Shown here piece by piece: positions 12,262 through 17,571 of a DNA stretch of 64,000 nucleotides. The DNA comes from Escherichia phage VTCCBPA_211, in sequence record PP989838.1; one strand, 5' to 3'. The translations under genes and the position numbers were made by a program. Below the pieces are notes generated by a model that searched no databases, had not been told where the DNA came from, and saw only the letters and a list, made by a program, of their open reading frames with translations. Position 1 is the stretch's first letter. Every line of letters begins with the position of its first letter.

Positions 12262-12414
12262 ATGTCTAAATTAGATTTAAAACTGCTAGCAGCAGCGGTA
12301 GTGATTTGTGCACTAGCACTGGTAACGCAGAGAACATCTGGATTTATTCAGTGTTTCTTTTCTGGGCAATCCACTTATCAGTGGGTTATTGACGAGTGTA
12401 AACAACAGGAGTAA
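12262..12414 (+). CDS. small membrane/secreted peptide (50 aa), speculative
   Basis: SD gagagga; hydrophobic LLAAAVVICALALV. Confidence 0.35.
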   Translation: MSKLDLKLLAAAVVICALALVTQRTSGFIQCFFSGQSTYQWVIDECKQQE

Positions 12415-12416
12415 GT

Positions 12417-12779
12417 ATGAATACACGTCCCATCAAGGGCAACGTTAATATTGAAACTCTGAACAAGGTTGCATCAAACCTCGGTGGAATGTCCAACGAT
12501 GAGCTTGAGCAAGAACTTGCTTGGATTGCAAATGGTATCAAAGTTGCTAAAGGTAAGATTGCTCGTGAGCAAAGCAACATGAAAGCTCACAAGTATATCA
12601 TCCGTCGTGCAAATGTGTTACCAGAGCGGGTTGTACATCTTGCCCGTAAAAACTACGCAGAAGCAAAGAAAGCTCTGGAAGAAGCTACTTTCCAGAAGCA
12701 CCAATTTATGAACAACTATCGAAACTTCCGAGATATTCTTTATATCCGTAAGTCGATTGAGTTGATTAAAAACCAATAG
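12417..12779 (+). CDS. hypothetical protein, first gene of the ligase operon
   Basis: ATG 2 nt after upstream stop. Confidence 0.55.
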   Translation: MNTRPIKGNVNIETLNKVASNLGGMSNDELEQELAWIANGIKVAKGKIAREQSNMKAHKYIIRRANVLPERVVHLARKNYAEAKKALEEATFQKHQFMNNYRNFRDILYIRKSIELIKNQ

Positions 12780-12790
12780 AGGTTGGTATA

Positions 12791-13984
12791 ATGTTTCCAG
12801 TAACATTAGAAGATACTGAAGGTAATGTTTTAACGGTTAGTCCTCCTTGTTATGGGTTCCTTCAGCTTCGCAACTATAATGGTGGCGTTGATGAAGACGA
12901 CGAATATGATGACTACTTCGACCCTAACATGTATGAGGCAACTCATGGATGGAACATGCACGTTCGAGTGTGGCATGAAGATGCTAACGTTCGTAGTGCT
13001 GATGGGGAAGAGTTCTTATTAAGTCGAGAGATGGATATGAGCAGTATTAAGCATATCTGGAACTCCGGAACTCACATGAAGATGTTAGGTTTTAGACGTT
13101 GGCGTGATGAAAAACCTGTATCCGCAGCTTTAGGTTGGGGTGCTATTGATTACGAAGGCGAGCTTAAAAACAACATCGAACGTTGGAACGACAAAAACCC
13201 TGAACACCGAACCACACCTCGTGCTGTACTGGAAGCTATGGAAGCATTTGTGGACAAAGATCGTCCCTCCTGTTTACGCTGGCACGATAAAGGTTTTATG
13301 GGGGTAGCAACTGAGAACATCCCTGCTGATCGTTGTCTGTTCTATTTGATGTTAGATCGAACCTTCTATTGTGAAGATGAAGAGAGTCAGGTTGAAACCT
13401 TCCTTCATAAATGGTTAGTTGAAGGCTGGACAATCCTTCAGGCTTACGTTTACTCACGAATGGTTAGTACCTACACTAACCTCTTGGGTGAAACGAAAGC
13501 TACTTTGGTTGGTAACGATTGGGATGCTTGTATCTTCCCAGCGTCGCTGTTTACAGTTGGCATGGCTAATAAATATGCTGAAGCATTTCAAGTGCCTTGG
13601 CGTCAACAGTCATATAGAGATGGGTGTGGTCATTTCCGTGATGAAGATTTTAAGTGGATTCATTATGAGAATGATGAAACAGCAGAATTACGAGTTAATA
13701 ACTCGATGTTCTTGCCGGTGATGCACCCCGACTTAGTAGAAAGTGAATCAGAAATCCTGAAATGTGACAACCTTCTGATTAACTTTGCTCGTCGGGTATC
13801 TAAAGATGAAAGAACAGCTGACAGATTAGTCTACGCTTATCGCGCTGAGACTAAAGATATGTTCAATATTTATAACATTATTCAGCGATTTAGTAGTGGA
13901 ACTCTGGACCAAAGTTCGGAGTATTCAGTGATTCCATCCTCTGAGTGGGATGGTATTATGAGCGGATTATTTTTAGGAAAATAA
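12791..13984 (+). CDS. operon protein of unknown function (397 aa)
   Basis: SD gaggttgg; no family recognised by eye. Confidence 0.7.
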   Translation: MFPVTLEDTEGNVLTVSPPCYGFLQLRNYNGGVDEDDEYDDYFDPNMYEATHGWNMHVRVWHEDANVRSADGEEFLLSREMDMSSIKHIWNSGTHMKMLGFRRWRDEKPVSAALGWGAIDYEGELKNNIERWNDKNPEHRTTPRAVLEAMEAFVDKDRPSCLRWHDKGFMGVATENIPADRCLFYLMLDRTFYCEDEESQVETFLHKWLVEGWTILQAYVYSRMVSTYTNLLGETKATLVGNDWDACIFPASLFTVGMANKYAEAFQVPWRQQSYRDGCGHFRDEDFKWIHYENDETAELRVNNSMFLPVMHPDLVESESEILKCDNLLINFARRVSKDERTADRLVYAYRAETKDMFNIYNIIQRFSSGTLDQSSEYSVIPSSEWDGIMSGLFLGK

Positions 13985-13994
13985 AAGGTTAGTT

Positions 13995-14966
13995 ATGTCA
14001 ATCTCCACAACGATCGTACCTCTGAATCTTCAACAAGATTTAGGGGAACAGAAGTTCTTAGGTCGTGGATGCTTCGGTATCCACAACTACATGCAAGCCC
14101 AGTGTGTAAATGACATTAATGGTGAAGTTATCATGGGAGAAGAGCATTATCGACGCTTCAACCGTGATATCAACTTGCAGCTGGAGATGTTGAATTACTG
14201 GACTCACTCTTTTTATAATCACCTTCCATCTGATATTGAAAAGAACTTGATTGAAACAGCAGACATTATGAACTCCATGTCTTGCTATCGTGACGTATTT
14301 ACGATCACTTCAGCGAATAGTGTTGCTGTCAACCTTCGTGAGCATCCAGCAGATCAGATCTTCACAGGACTTATGCTCTTTCGTAGTATTCTGGAAGGGC
14401 AATATCGTGGAATGGATTTCCTAGCAGAAGGAATTGAAGACAGGGAAGAGTGGCTGAAGCGTAAACGCATCGGAATCGCTCTAGTGTTAGCTGGGTTGGG
14501 TCGTGACTTCTTCGGTGGATGGTCTCAACGAGGAAGAGCCAATGGGAGTAGTGAAAGCACCTCTATTGTTATTAACAACAATATGTCAGCAGCAGCTTTC
14601 CTTCCTTTGGTTGTAGACTCTGATGAATACACGAAACAAGTATGGGTTCAAAACCCCTTCGGTGTTGGCGACAACGAGAATGGTTATGTTCGTAACCATA
14701 ACCAAGAAGCCTTACGAAGATTTGCTCGTGCTAAAGATCAAGACCCGGACGAGTATGAAACAATGTCAGAGTGGTTAAGACTCTGGTCCAACTGTCATGG
14801 TCACAAACGTGAAGCAATAGATAATAAGTTGGAAAACATTACAGTCCAAAACTTTACAGCCCGACTGATTCAACGTACTGGACCAAACTCTGGTCTTACT
14901 ACTGAAGAAGTTGGTAACACAATCTCATCTCTCTTTTCTGAACTAGTGGAGTATTACAATGACTAA
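13995..14966 (+). CDS. operon protein of unknown function (323 aa)
   Basis: SD aaaagg; no family recognised. Confidence 0.7.
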   Translation: MSISTTIVPLNLQQDLGEQKFLGRGCFGIHNYMQAQCVNDINGEVIMGEEHYRRFNRDINLQLEMLNYWTHSFYNHLPSDIEKNLIETADIMNSMSCYRDVFTITSANSVAVNLREHPADQIFTGLMLFRSILEGQYRGMDFLAEGIEDREEWLKRKRIGIALVLAGLGRDFFGGWSQRGRANGSSESTSIVINNNMSAAAFLPLVVDSDEYTKQVWVQNPFGVGDNENGYVRNHNQEALRRFARAKDQDPDEYETMSEWLRLWSNCHGHKREAIDNKLENITVQNFTARLIQRTGPNSGLTTEEVGNTISSLFSELVEYYND

Positions 14967-15765
14967 GCGCAAATTCCTTATTGGGAGCGATCCCGAGATG
15001 TTCGTTCGTACCAGCAATGGCATTATCACCTCTGTAGCTGGTCTGTTAGGTTGTTCTAAGGACGATAAGATCACTCTGGCTAAGGATGTACGTCTTCAAG
15101 AGGACAATGTACTGGCTGAGTTTGATATCGACCCACAGAGCGGTTTTGACGCGTTTAATGATAACATGCAACGTGGTATTGATCTTACCAATAATGTCCT
15201 GAACAAACTGGACATGGAAGCAGCTCCGGGTGTTAGCTCTCACATCTTCACTGAAGAAGAGATGAAGACTTTCAATGAATCAGCGTTCATCTTCGGGTGT
15301 ACTCCTGATTTCAACGCTTTCACTGGTCAGAAGAATCCATCCCCGACTTCTCAGAATAAGGGACTTCGTACTGCCGGTGGTCACGTACATCTTGGCGTGG
15401 TTGGTGCTTTGGATATCACTCTGCAAACTCAGATGATGCTTGGTGTGCTGTGTGACTACTTCCTGTCTCTCCCAGCAGTGATTATGGACAAAGATACTCG
15501 CCGTAAAGAACTCTATGGCAAAGCATCTGCAATCCGCTATAAAGACTACGGTATCGAATACCGTTCACTGTCTAACTTCTGGATTAGCGATCGTGAAAAC
15601 CGTAAGTTTGTTTACGATCAGGTTGACAAGGTTGTTCAGCAGTGTGATATGTCCACTCTGATGGCATTGCACTCTCGCCTTCCGATTGAGAAGCTTCATG
15701 AAATCATTAACGGGAACAATGTTAAAGAAGCTGACCAGCAGATCAAACTCCTTCAGGTAGCATAA
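14959..15765 (+). CDS. putative GS/GCS2-like amidoligase (carboxylate-amine ligase), paralog 1
   Basis: Motifs GSDPEMF, GGHVHLG, GIEYRS fit the E-x-E / H-V-H / E-x-R pattern of YbdK-like ligases (pattern level only). Confidence 0.5.
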   Translation: MTKRKFLIGSDPEMFVRTSNGIITSVAGLLGCSKDDKITLAKDVRLQEDNVLAEFDIDPQSGFDAFNDNMQRGIDLTNNVLNKLDMEAAPGVSSHIFTEEEMKTFNESAFIFGCTPDFNAFTGQKNPSPTSQNKGLRTAGGHVHLGVVGALDITLQTQMMLGVLCDYFLSLPAVIMDKDTRRKELYGKASAIRYKDYGIEYRSLSNFWISDRENRKFVYDQVDKVVQQCDMSTLMALHSRLPIEKLHEIINGNNVKEADQQIKLLQVA

Positions 15766-15774
15766 GAGGTTATC

Positions 15775-16392
15775 GTGAGCTTAGTATCTGATTTTTCTCA
15801 TTACTATAATGGTACATGGATTGCTAAACGAGCAGGTAATATCAACCTTCCGTGTTTTGTGATTGGTGTTGAGCAGAGCGGTAACTTCCGCAGCGATGAC
15901 TTCTCGCATGAAGCAGAGCAGGCTCTGTATTTTGTTGTAGAGCAGTGGTACAAGAACGAGCATGGGAATCTCCGAAACACTACAATGAATATTCCAGTGT
16001 TCGACCCAACCTTGATTCTTGAATCACCTGACGTTGGTTATCTGTTTCACAACGGTAATACTGTAAGCTGGACTCATATTAACCCTGTTCGTCAGAGAGC
16101 GAAGGGTTTGATGGGTAACAAGATTCGAAACGCTCCGGGGATTGGTCGTTCGATCTCTGGTGAAATGGTTTACAGTCTGTTCAATCCTGAATTCGAAGGA
16201 TTGGTTACTCGTTATATTTACATCAACCCTACGGATGGTAAGGTGCATTATAAAGGTGCACTGGTAGGACAAGTAGATCTGGAAGCGCCTCGTGACTCTT
16301 ACGGTCAGCAATCAATGCGACTTCTGGAACACTTTCATCATATTTCTGAAAACCTTAGCAATTACAATATTACGTTGGTGGATTCGTTATGA
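15775..16392 (+). CDS. operon protein of unknown function (205 aa)
   Basis: GTG start with SD aagaggt; ATGA overlap with next gene. Confidence 0.6.
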   Translation: MSLVSDFSHYYNGTWIAKRAGNINLPCFVIGVEQSGNFRSDDFSHEAEQALYFVVEQWYKNEHGNLRNTTMNIPVFDPTLILESPDVGYLFHNGNTVSWTHINPVRQRAKGLMGNKIRNAPGIGRSISGEMVYSLFNPEFEGLVTRYIYINPTDGKVHYKGALVGQVDLEAPRDSYGQQSMRLLEHFHHISENLSNYNITLVDSL

Positions 16393-17492
16393 CAACTGTA
16401 GCGCAAACTTTTGGATATCGAGAAGGTCGTTTAACTGAGGAGCATAGTTCAATTGCACTTCAGTGCGGTGTCGGTATTGAACTTGAACTCGAAGGTTCCG
16501 ATCATATCGAAGCAGATATGTGGGATTGTACAGAGGATGGTTCCCTGCGTAATGGTTGTGAAATGGTATGTTCACGACCTTACAATGGACAGGAGTTGTT
16601 AGACGCTATCAACAACCTGAGTGAAGCAGTAGCTGAATCGCACGCCGAGGGGACTTGGCGTTGCTCTACTCACGTTCATATGGATATGAGGGATGCTGAT
16701 AGTAATATCCTCAAGAAAACCATTCTCGCTTGGACCTTCTATGAAAAGATGTTGTTCAAGTGTTCAGGCTATCATCGTTACCGTAGCAACTTCTGCCCTG
16801 CTTTTGCAGTGGTACAAGCACAGGTAATGAATGCCTCTGATGCATTTAACTACGATGGTGAAGAGTTCTTCAACCGTCTGGTGCGTTCATGGGATAAGTA
16901 TACATCCCTGAACCTTCTGCCACTTGCCCAATACGGTTCGATTGAGTTCCGTATCAGTGAGCCTAAGTGGAAACGTGGTCAACTTCTCAATCTGGTTAAC
17001 CGCTTCTTGATGTTGAAGAAGCTGGCTTTAGATAACGCAGATATGAGCAATGATCAGTTTATTGAGCACTTAAATACTGTACGATTCGCCCCAATGCTTC
17101 CTTATCTTCCTCTAGATTACAATCTGGATGAATCTGATTTGCATTCAGGGTATTGTATGGCCCGTGATGTTTTGTATTGCCGTTCTCATGAAGTAGAACA
17201 GTCTGGTCGTATTCGTTTACGTAGAACTAACTCCAACGGAGATGTTCTTGTTGACTTACGTCTTATGTCAGACTTCTATGGATTCCTTGGGTATGTCCGA
17301 GGGAACGCTAACAACTTGTACCAAGAGATTTTGGTTATGCTTCGTACAGCAGACCTATCTCAAGTAAGACACGCTCCAGAGCAACGTATTCGTGCTATTT
17401 TTGACTTACTACGTGAGTCAGGTCATAGTGATAGCAATATCACAGGGTACATTCCAGATCATCTGGAAAATCAGTTAGAGCAAGCGCTGTAA
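16389..17492 (+). CDS. putative GS/GCS2-like amidoligase, paralog 2
   Basis: GVGIELELEG, STHVHMD, GSIEFRIS motifs resemble YbdK/GCS2 carboxylate-amine ligases. Confidence 0.6.
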   Translation: MTTVAQTFGYREGRLTEEHSSIALQCGVGIELELEGSDHIEADMWDCTEDGSLRNGCEMVCSRPYNGQELLDAINNLSEAVAESHAEGTWRCSTHVHMDMRDADSNILKKTILAWTFYEKMLFKCSGYHRYRSNFCPAFAVVQAQVMNASDAFNYDGEEFFNRLVRSWDKYTSLNLLPLAQYGSIEFRISEPKWKRGQLLNLVNRFLMLKKLALDNADMSNDQFIEHLNTVRFAPMLPYLPLDYNLDESDLHSGYCMARDVLYCRSHEVEQSGRIRLRRTNSNGDVLVDLRLMSDFYGFLGYVRGNANNLYQEILVMLRTADLSQVRHAPEQRIRAIFDLLRESGHSDSNITGYIPDHLENQLEQAL

Positions 17493-17538
17493 TCAATGGG
17501 TGCCTCTGACAAAGGGGCACAATTTAAAGGTTAATTAG

Positions 17539-17568
17539 ATGAAAGGGTTTACCCTTCAGGTGGATTAG
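17539..17568 (+). other. 9-codon leader mini-ORF ending 3 nt before the GATase initiator
   Basis: ATG AAA GGG TTT ACC CTT CAG GTG GAT TAG; its codons contain the SD-like AGGTGGA for the downstream AUU. Confidence 0.3.
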
Positions 17569-17571
17569 AAA

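Follow-up and report, generated by a model that had tools for sequence, protein, structure and literature searches.

The stretch of DNA analysed here (the window) comprises 64,000 nucleotides (nt) of Escherichia phage VTCCBPA_211 (record PP989838.1) and contains a block of closely packed genes in which three open reading frames (ORFs), the orthologs of phiEco32 gp88, gp87 and gp85, lie among genes for amide-bond-forming ligases. An earlier note, made from the sequence alone, had described these ORFs as tightly coupled to the ligase genes and as lacking a recognisable family. All three are present on the plus strand with the sizes it reported (Table 1). Their coupling to the ligase genes was borne out: a PF14395 gene lies between gp87 and gp85, a PF12224 gene follows gp85, and the successive junctions from the gp89-like gene to gp84 measure +11, +10, -8, +9 and -4 nt. 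In a megablast search the region 12400-21300 matched 98 phage records, the best being those of Escherichia phages MN05, NJ01 and phiEco32, which align with it from end to end at 95-96% identity; we therefore assign the window to a phiEco32-like Kuravirus (Gordonclarkvirinae) with approximately 95% nucleotide identity to phiEco32, and the annotation of the latter supplies the gene names. The ratio of nonsynonymous to synonymous substitution rates (dN/dS) against phiEco32 is 0.08 for gp88, 0.32 for gp87, 0.04 for gp85 and 0.03-0.05 for the flanking ligases, and a Shine-Dalgarno-like site precedes each of the three ORFs. Low dN/dS, Shine-Dalgarno-like sites and overlapping or near-abutting junctions together indicate that gp88, gp87 and gp85 are genuine genes under purifying selection. 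In every record examined, from about 100 sequenced phages, they are labelled 'hypothetical protein'. Searches with the three proteins matched no family in Pfam or NCBIfam and no sequence in the PDB, either by single sequence or by profile. The lack of a recognisable family thus holds for these resources, and for gp88 also at the level of PDB folds (see below), but the proteins were already known as phiEco32 orthologs and as members of PHROGs 13063, 13102 and 4877, respectively, all three of 'unknown function'.

We found that gp88 and gp87 are related to each other. By tblastn, matches to both are confined to Gordonclarkvirinae of E. coli and Shigella, and metagenomic relatives could be aligned down to 31-35% identity with many invariant polar residues. 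The 7-11-like phages and Aeromonas phage APT65 carry two genes, for proteins of about 290 and 310 amino acids (aa), at the same positions upstream of the type-2 ligase gene. In 7-11-like phages the position-88 and position-87 proteins match each other (hhalign probability 98.4, E = 1e-14, 233 columns), and a merged 7-11-like profile matches both gp88 (probability 95.3, E = 2e-8) and gp87 (probability 95.2, E = 3e-8). A profile of gp88 with the 7-11-like proteins likewise matches gp87 (hhalign E = 1e-7). Direct comparison of gp88 with gp87 aligns the same motifs but is not significant alone (hhalign E = 0.14), so the link depends on the 7-11-like intermediates. Control comparisons gave E = 0.014-0.56 with gp85-family profiles and E = 0.12-0.71 with reversed sequences. 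Plain HMMER with the 7-11-like profile ranked phiEco32 gp87 (1e-7) and gp88 (1e-5) ahead of the next ORF (0.24). These profile comparisons indicate that gp88 and gp87, though divergent, are tandem paralogs and belong to a single superfamily that had not been defined before. The earlier note had missed this paralogy.

In a 26-sequence alignment of the superfamily one Cys and one Arg are invariant, two Gly and a further Arg are nearly so, and a WxQ motif is commonly conserved. The signature consists of an N-terminal beta-hairpin followed by C-[FYW]-G, a helix with (A)D-x7-M-x2-R(N), and WxQ…G-[Y/H]-x-R. The Cys of C-[FYW]-G is kept in 26 of 26 members, among them gp88 (C20) and gp87 (C26); the other conserved residues are Arg190, W270-R-Q272 and G280-H-x-R283 in gp88, and Arg130, W217-x-Q219 and G230-Y-x-R233 in gp87. 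Pro precedes the Cys in gp88 and most 7-11-like members and is absent in gp87. A variable insert rich in Asp and Glu follows the Cys motif in gp88 (residues 33-47, positions 12887-12931) and is common to gp88 and the 7-11-like position-88 proteins, being absent from gp87 and the position-87 proteins. APT65 encodes a third, more divergent member (locus L012, 6000-6797), which the 7-11-like profile matches at HMMER E = 3e-10; its gene lies upstream of the usual two, with a gene for a TerC-like membrane protein in between. A search for related loci with the 7-11-like profile yielded two loci only.

An AlphaFold2 model of gp88 from an 18-sequence alignment has a predicted local distance difference test score (pLDDT) of 88.6 and a predicted template modelling score (pTM) of 0.89, and is poorly defined only in the acidic insert (residues 31-40). 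Strands 4-8 and 13-16 lie before Cys20, which directly precedes a helix (residues 21-24). Comparison of the model with the PDB by fold gave no match; as modelled, the alpha+beta fold of gp88 appears to be absent from that database. A Foldseek search of the model against BFVD predicted viral structures retrieved the EP335 ortholog, a Proteus phage protein (E = 4e-6), both GAP52 paralogs (K4FBC0, 314 aa, E = 1e-4; K4F9T7, 290 aa, E = 4e-4) and both Aeromonas LAh_8 proteins. Template modelling (TM) scores to the predicted structures of both 7-11-like paralogs are 0.39-0.57, with the gp88 model as query. These matches among predicted structures independently support a single family in which two members occur in tandem.

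The third protein, gp85, is the most conserved of the three (98% identity within Kuravirus), and its family reaches wider than the gp88/gp87 superfamily. It matches homologs in 7-11-like phages (probability 99.7, E = 3e-27) and in LUZ24-like Pseudomonas phages (probability 98.8, E = 5e-17), with weaker matches in Zobellviridae (CVT22 gp57, PA11 ORF006). In Kuravirus and in all of these groups the gene always lies between the type-2 ligase and Amidoligase_2 genes. A hidden Markov model (HMM) search of 1.84 billion representative proteins recovered only 64 clusters, nearly all of them standalone proteins of 180-205 aa, and among these clusters we found no domain fusion and no added Pfam domain. 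The sole long match, the repetitive 'YINSSDGKxYYKG' protein P0111 (781 aa), was judged spurious. A scan of 185,579 species genomes gave a single match, on an 8-kb contig (L022, CALKAR010000070.1) deposited in an 'uncultured Peptococcaceae' metagenome-assembled genome and 97% identical to Kuravirus gp85; almost certainly, a contig of phage origin has here been mis-binned with bacterial sequence. The family, as far as these searches reach, is restricted to phages. The gp85 model is of moderate confidence (pLDDT 71.4, pTM 0.54), with beta-rich N- and C-terminal parts. Residues 84-127 fall below a pLDDT of 50, yet no other segment of gp85 is as conserved: 22 of these 44 residues are invariant, and the segment carries a net charge of +5. 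The R-x-x-x-K-G core of this loop is retained in the 7-11-like and LUZ24-like homologs. With an invariant Cys and Arg in gp88 and gp87 and an invariant loop of basic character in gp85, the pattern of conservation is consistent with catalytic or ligand-binding proteins.

Table 1. Genes of the amidoligase block in the window (64,000 nt), with the evidence for each assignment
Gene	Coordinates	Strand	Product	Evidence and remarks
gp89-like	12417..12779	+	Small protein, 120 aa	PHROG 11370 (unknown function); opens the tight block, separated from gp88 by 11 nt
gp88	12791..13984	+	Superfamily member 1, 397 aa, ATG start	Ortholog of phiEco32 gp88; predicted alpha+beta protein
gp87	13995..14966	+	Superfamily member 2, 323 aa, ATG start	Ortholog of phiEco32 gp87; alignment, hhalign, HMMER
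gp86	14959..15765	+	Type-2 COOH-NH2 ligase	PF14395, E = 2e-8; PHROG 3815; 8-nt overlap with gp87 stop
gp85	15775..16392	+	Small, predicted beta-rich protein with conserved basic loop, 205 aa, GTG start	Ortholog of phiEco32 gp85
gp84	16389..17492	+	Amidoligase_2	PF12224, E = 5e-8; PHROG 7469; ATG overlaps gp85 stop (ATGA)
gp83	17572..19602	+	Class-II (N-terminal nucleophile, Ntn) glutamine amidotransferase (GATase)	GATase_6, 1e-14 on full length; long Cys-rich C-terminal region
gp82	19607..19840	+	DUF7195 small protein	PF23825, E = 2e-17
gp80	20048..21241	+	RimK-like ATP-grasp ligase with C-terminal extension	PHROG 2599
gp77	21748..22167	+	Gamma-glutamyl cyclotransferase (GGCT; AIG2/GGACT-like)	PF06094, E = 4e-16; phiEco32 annotation

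Five module enzymes (type-2 ligase, Amidoligase_2, class-II GATase, ATP-grasp ligase and GGCT) are all present in this one block. The type-2 ligase gp86, a glutamine-synthetase-like carboxylate-amine ligase, occurs in 306 phage records (tblastn). For gp80 the Pfam matches to RimK and Dala_Dala_lig_C are weak, and NCBIfam MptN and rimK_fam stay below their cut-offs. GGCT is the last recognisable enzyme of the module, with the primase/helicase gene next downstream. At the other end, a 119-aa gene occupies the gp89 position in the divergent uncultured relative L021.

Several further features of the block were noted. The gp83 frame is open from 17572 and starts at ATT (ATT-TGT-GGC), with AGGTGGA 8 nt upstream, and therefore the catalytic N-terminal Cys is the second codon; phiEco32 gp83 is annotated from ATT at its full 676 aa. 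Mechanical ORF calling gives only a shortened 563-aa protein from TTG 17911, and the short form is found in some GenBank records. The 79-nt gap between the amidoligase and GATase genes is the sole sizeable intergenic gap in the block and holds an imperfect hairpin (GTGCCTC…GGGGCAC, 17497-17525) that was not among the hits of the consensus terminator scan. Kuravirus, 7-11-like and LUZ24-like phages all conserve a DUF7195 protein of about 72-77 aa, whose gene stands between those for the GATase and the ATP-grasp ligase; the aligned copies (window 19607-19840, L003 10983-11204, L014 11377-11595) contain a pattern, xLxxxVxxRxxPMTxxGxDxLR, that by eye resembles a ribbon-helix-helix DNA-binding protein. 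Given this pattern and the DUF7195 match, the idea that gp82 is a small carrier protein was rejected. In the window the primase/helicase gene is split into 22387-23637 (profile positions 37-449) and 24371-24916 (positions 451-611), with an HNH endonuclease gene (23743-24273) between the two parts. The phiEco32 gene is a single 596-aa ORF; the split is probably a homing-endonuclease or intron insertion.

We compared the order of these genes across phage groups. Kuravirus and 7-11-like phages have in common the order paralog, paralog, type-2 ligase, gp85, Amidoligase_2, GATase, followed at some distance by the ATP-grasp ligase and then by GGCT. This order is kept in six 7-11-like (Grimontviridae) phages and in Aeromonas phage APT65 (Aquaneticvirus), whose hosts are Cronobacter, Aeromonas, Salmonella and Vibrio. 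An uncultured relative with a gp88 identity of 31% shows the order gp89-like, gp88, gp87, type-2 ligase, gp85, amidoligase, GATase, DUF7195, small protein, ATP-grasp. Synteny thus persists between phage groups whose proteins share only 20-50% identity, and the connection of gp88, gp87 and gp85 to the ligase genes appears, from these comparisons, much stronger than could be seen in the window alone by the author of the earlier note. LUZ24-like phages have the same layout, with two proteins of about 285 aa encoded ahead of the type-2 ligase, each carrying SCFGY or NCWGAF near its N-terminus; here the same positions are filled, and homology is proven for gp85 only. In Zobellviridae and in the crAss-like Cellulophaga phage phi14:2 the enzyme set adjoins replication genes. 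CVT22 gp67 was retained only as a weak gp88/gp87 candidate (hhalign E about 0.02, Foldseek E = 0.35), and PA11 ORF009 and a 422-aa protein of Pseudomonas phage JB8 were dismissed as relatives after showing no similarity. A few kb upstream of the module, 7-11-like and metagenomic relatives (L010 2093-4656, L012 1627-4097, L021 1-1889) have genes for a ribose-phosphate pyrophosphokinase and nicotinamide phosphoribosyltransferase pair together with Ter (tellurite-resistance-type) genes; Kuravirus has neither the pair nor the Ter genes.

On the strength of conservation and gene order, gp88, gp87 and gp85 appear to be conserved, phage-restricted, non-ligase components of the phiEco32-type amidoligase module, and most likely they are dedicated accessory subunits of the ligase pathway. 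The earlier note had proposed substrate-specifying, scaffold or catalytic roles; the synteny with the ligases, the conserved Cys and Arg and the basic loop fit such roles, which are themselves still deduced rather than observed. We suggest that gp88 and gp87 might work as a pair, probably a pseudo-symmetric heteromer, that would bind an anionic substrate through its Arg residues, while the Cys would either act on the substrate or hold a thio-linked intermediate. Such a pair could feed the type-2 ligase encoded immediately downstream. The end product of the module may be a small amide-linked metabolite or a macromolecule that carries the modification. For its part, gp85 may be an adaptor or specificity subunit of the ligases, with a loop that would become ordered only on binding a ligase or substrate. 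This proposal draws on the tandem paralogs with invariant Cys and Arg and an apparently new fold, on the small phage-only gp85 with its conserved basic loop and its place between the two glutamine-synthetase-like ligases, and on the strict co-location with five amide-bond enzymes. We put the probability that both parts hold jointly, a gp88/gp87 pair handling an anionic substrate ahead of the type-2 ligase and gp85 as adaptor or specificity subunit, at roughly 0.5.

A number of observations weigh against this proposal. Each functional step assigned to the three proteins is drawn from conservation and gene order, and among related phages the persistence of gene order in an early/middle region can reflect descent alone. 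The dN/dS of gp87 points to weaker constraint than on gp88 or gp85, and gp87 is presumed to share the gp88 fold by homology. The LUZ24-like positional counterparts have only the N-terminal C-[FWY]-G motif in common with the superfamily and, because they gave no significant match to the gp88/gp87 profiles (E>=0.017), we did not count them as members. Furthermore, PA11 (Zobellviridae) and Cellulophaga phage phi14:2 carry the ligase set with no detectable gp88/gp87 relatives. Since some phages manage with the ligase set in this way, gp88 and gp87 are not required for the ligase chemistry itself; they are lineage-specific additions rather than a core part of it.

The same absence would suit a reading in which gp88, gp87 and gp85 are functionally unrelated to the ligases, being early/middle host-takeover, transcription or replication factors whose position was kept by ancestry. 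The block does sit between early small genes and the primase/helicase gene, and a small DNA-binding-like protein of known type and small proteins like phiEco32 gp79 are interspersed in it. However, order and tight junctions are retained at protein identities of 20-30%, and gp85-family genes lie between two ligase genes even in LUZ24-like phages and Zobellviridae, although the remaining module of the latter is laid out differently. Neither Pfam, PHROGs, NCBIfam nor the fold searches revealed similarity to a replication, transcription or structural family, and we consider this reading unlikely. Virion structural or assembly proteins would be favoured by size alone; the genes belong to the early/replication side of the genome, at a great distance from those for head and tail, and match no structural PHROG, Pfam family or fold. 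Homology to phage structural or replication proteins, which the earlier note had named as the result that would speak against it, was looked for by both sequence and fold and did not appear, and a structural role is very improbable indeed. Alternatively, one or more of the three proteins might be the target of the ligases, with amino acids added, for instance, to the gp85 loop or the acidic part of gp88, as in the action of RimK on ribosomal protein S6, in pupylation or with the LysW carrier protein. The module has three ATP-dependent carboxylate-amine ligases and no identified acceptor, gp85 residues 84-127 are predicted to be disordered, as peptide substrates often are, and the Asp/Glu-rich insert is found in gp88 and its 7-11-like counterparts. 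Yet the conserved gp85 loop is basic, not acidic, and the protein has no conserved C-terminal Glu or Gln of the Pup or LysW kind, its C-termini differing by lineage; the gp88 insert varies in length and sequence and gp87 has none; and the two paralogs, both large and well folded and each with the invariant Cys and Arg, resemble enzymes more than tags. A role as ligase target thus seems improbable to about the same degree as the absence of any functional relation.

One further possibility is that the module modifies phage DNA or nucleotide precursors, with gp88 and gp87 activating the base, the (Pro-)Cys serving as nucleophile and the Arg residues as phosphate clamps, and the ligases building an amino-acid-derived side chain. 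Thymidylate synthases and C5-cytosine methyltransferases have a Pro-Cys nucleophile, of which the PPCYGF and PCFGF motifs are reminiscent. The enzyme set adjoins replication genes in five phage lineages, and in Cellulophaga phage phi14:2 it lies beside a uracil-DNA glycosylase. Gordonclarkvirinae are reported (BASEL) to be remarkably resistant to restriction-modification, with no known modification pathway or inhibitor (PMC11990801), and sites for EcoRV, EcoKI and EcoP1 are plentiful in the window. However, the authors of that report favour another locus, encoding a dCTP deaminase and a nucleotidyltransferase (PMC11990801). A 2026 paper on 5-hydroxycytosine modification deals with none of the phages considered here. 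The gp88 model has no fold similarity to thymidylate synthase or methyltransferases, the Pro before the Cys is absent in gp87, and of the known hypermodification pathways neither a carbon-donor enzyme nor a DNA kinase or transferase was seen. That CCWGG, GATC, BamHI and PstI sites are strongly avoided also suggests exposure to at least some restriction, and overall we regard DNA or nucleotide modification as rather unlikely. The site counts in the window (observed versus expected) are 5 versus 86 for CCWGG, 0 versus 17 for PstI, 0 versus 10 for BamHI, 142 versus 250 for GATC and 51 versus 116 for GGCC; EcoRV is enriched (29 versus 15), and EcoKI (7) and EcoP1 (86) sites are common. In its fullest form, the whole block would be a new covalent pathway of phage-DNA or nucleotide modification, with gp88 and gp87 as a new base-activating class that combines a Cys nucleophile and Arg clamps for phosphate with a fold unseen before, gp85 as a nucleic-acid-binding adaptor, and GATase, GGCT and the ligases building and trimming the side chain. 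We hold this quite improbable; if true, it would explain the restriction-modification resistance reported for Gordonclarkvirinae. Should the block be the basis of that resistance, its chemistry would be a new form of anti-restriction; otherwise new enzyme folds are still likely to come from it.

Databases and the literature already contain the genes and the enzyme cluster. The present analysis adds that gp88 and gp87 are paralogs and that gp88 matches no fold in the PDB; it also defines the gp85 family, traces where that family occurs and shows how far the synteny extends. The amidoligase/GATase/ATP-grasp block is present in hundreds of sequenced phages, the count of 306 records being for the type-2 ligase alone, and some of the carriers are candidates for therapy against E. 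coli and Pseudomonas; in the literature surveyed, no product or role of the block has been demonstrated. The paralog pair, two of the largest uncharacterised genes of the block, with its invariant Cys and Arg and a fold that the PDB lacks, and the phage-only partner wedged between two glutamine-synthetase-like ligases are defined experimental targets; the paralogy and the placement of gp85 suggest particular point mutants, pull-downs of pairs and structural work.

Comparison with known enzyme classes reveals partial likenesses. Papain-like, NlpC/P60 and transglutaminase-like enzymes resemble the gp88 model in having a Cys immediately before a helix, and the NCWGAF of a LUZ24-like counterpart is reminiscent of the papain CWAF. 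They differ in that no His or Asp/Asn partner is conserved across the gp88/gp87 superfamily and the fold does not match; the Cys-His(-Asp/Asn) set on a papain-like fold is thus lacking, and membership was rejected. Thymidylate synthases and C5-pyrimidine methyltransferases were set aside as well, as gp87 reads GCFG and there is no fold or Pfam match. Nor do gp88 and gp87 have the four-layer alpha-beta-beta-alpha fold and processed N-terminal Cys of Ntn hydrolases.

For gp85, a model of moderate confidence gives weak scores against SH3/Tudor-like barrels, which would be arranged around the conserved basic loop. The SH3-like small barrels (Tudor, BAH, KOW, HspQ/YccV) differ from it in having no sequence relationship to gp85 and no counterpart of its conserved basic loop. 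Pup (with PafA/Dop) and LysW (with LysX) are, like gp85, small proteins encoded beside glutamine-synthetase-like or ATP-grasp ligases, and Pup and gp85 both have a disordered conserved segment. In contrast to Pup and LysW, gp85 is larger, mostly folded and without a conserved C-terminal Glu or Gln; its C-termini vary by lineage (...VDSL, ...VIEE, ...STS, ...LQNT), and it was not accepted as a carrier of this kind. The closest known system is the phiEco32-type amidoligase cluster, reportedly described by Iyer, Abhiman, Burroughs and Aravind in 2009 (Mol Biosyst 5:1636), work said to be the source of Pfam PF14395 ('Phage phiEco32-like COOH.NH2 ligase-type 2'). According to a citation in PMC10580990, the predicted task of the enzymes of this cluster was to synthesise a peptide-like product or else to alter the cell wall. 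The window carries all five enzymes of the cluster at approximately 95% nucleotide identity to phiEco32, and gp88, gp87 and gp85 are its unannotated members.

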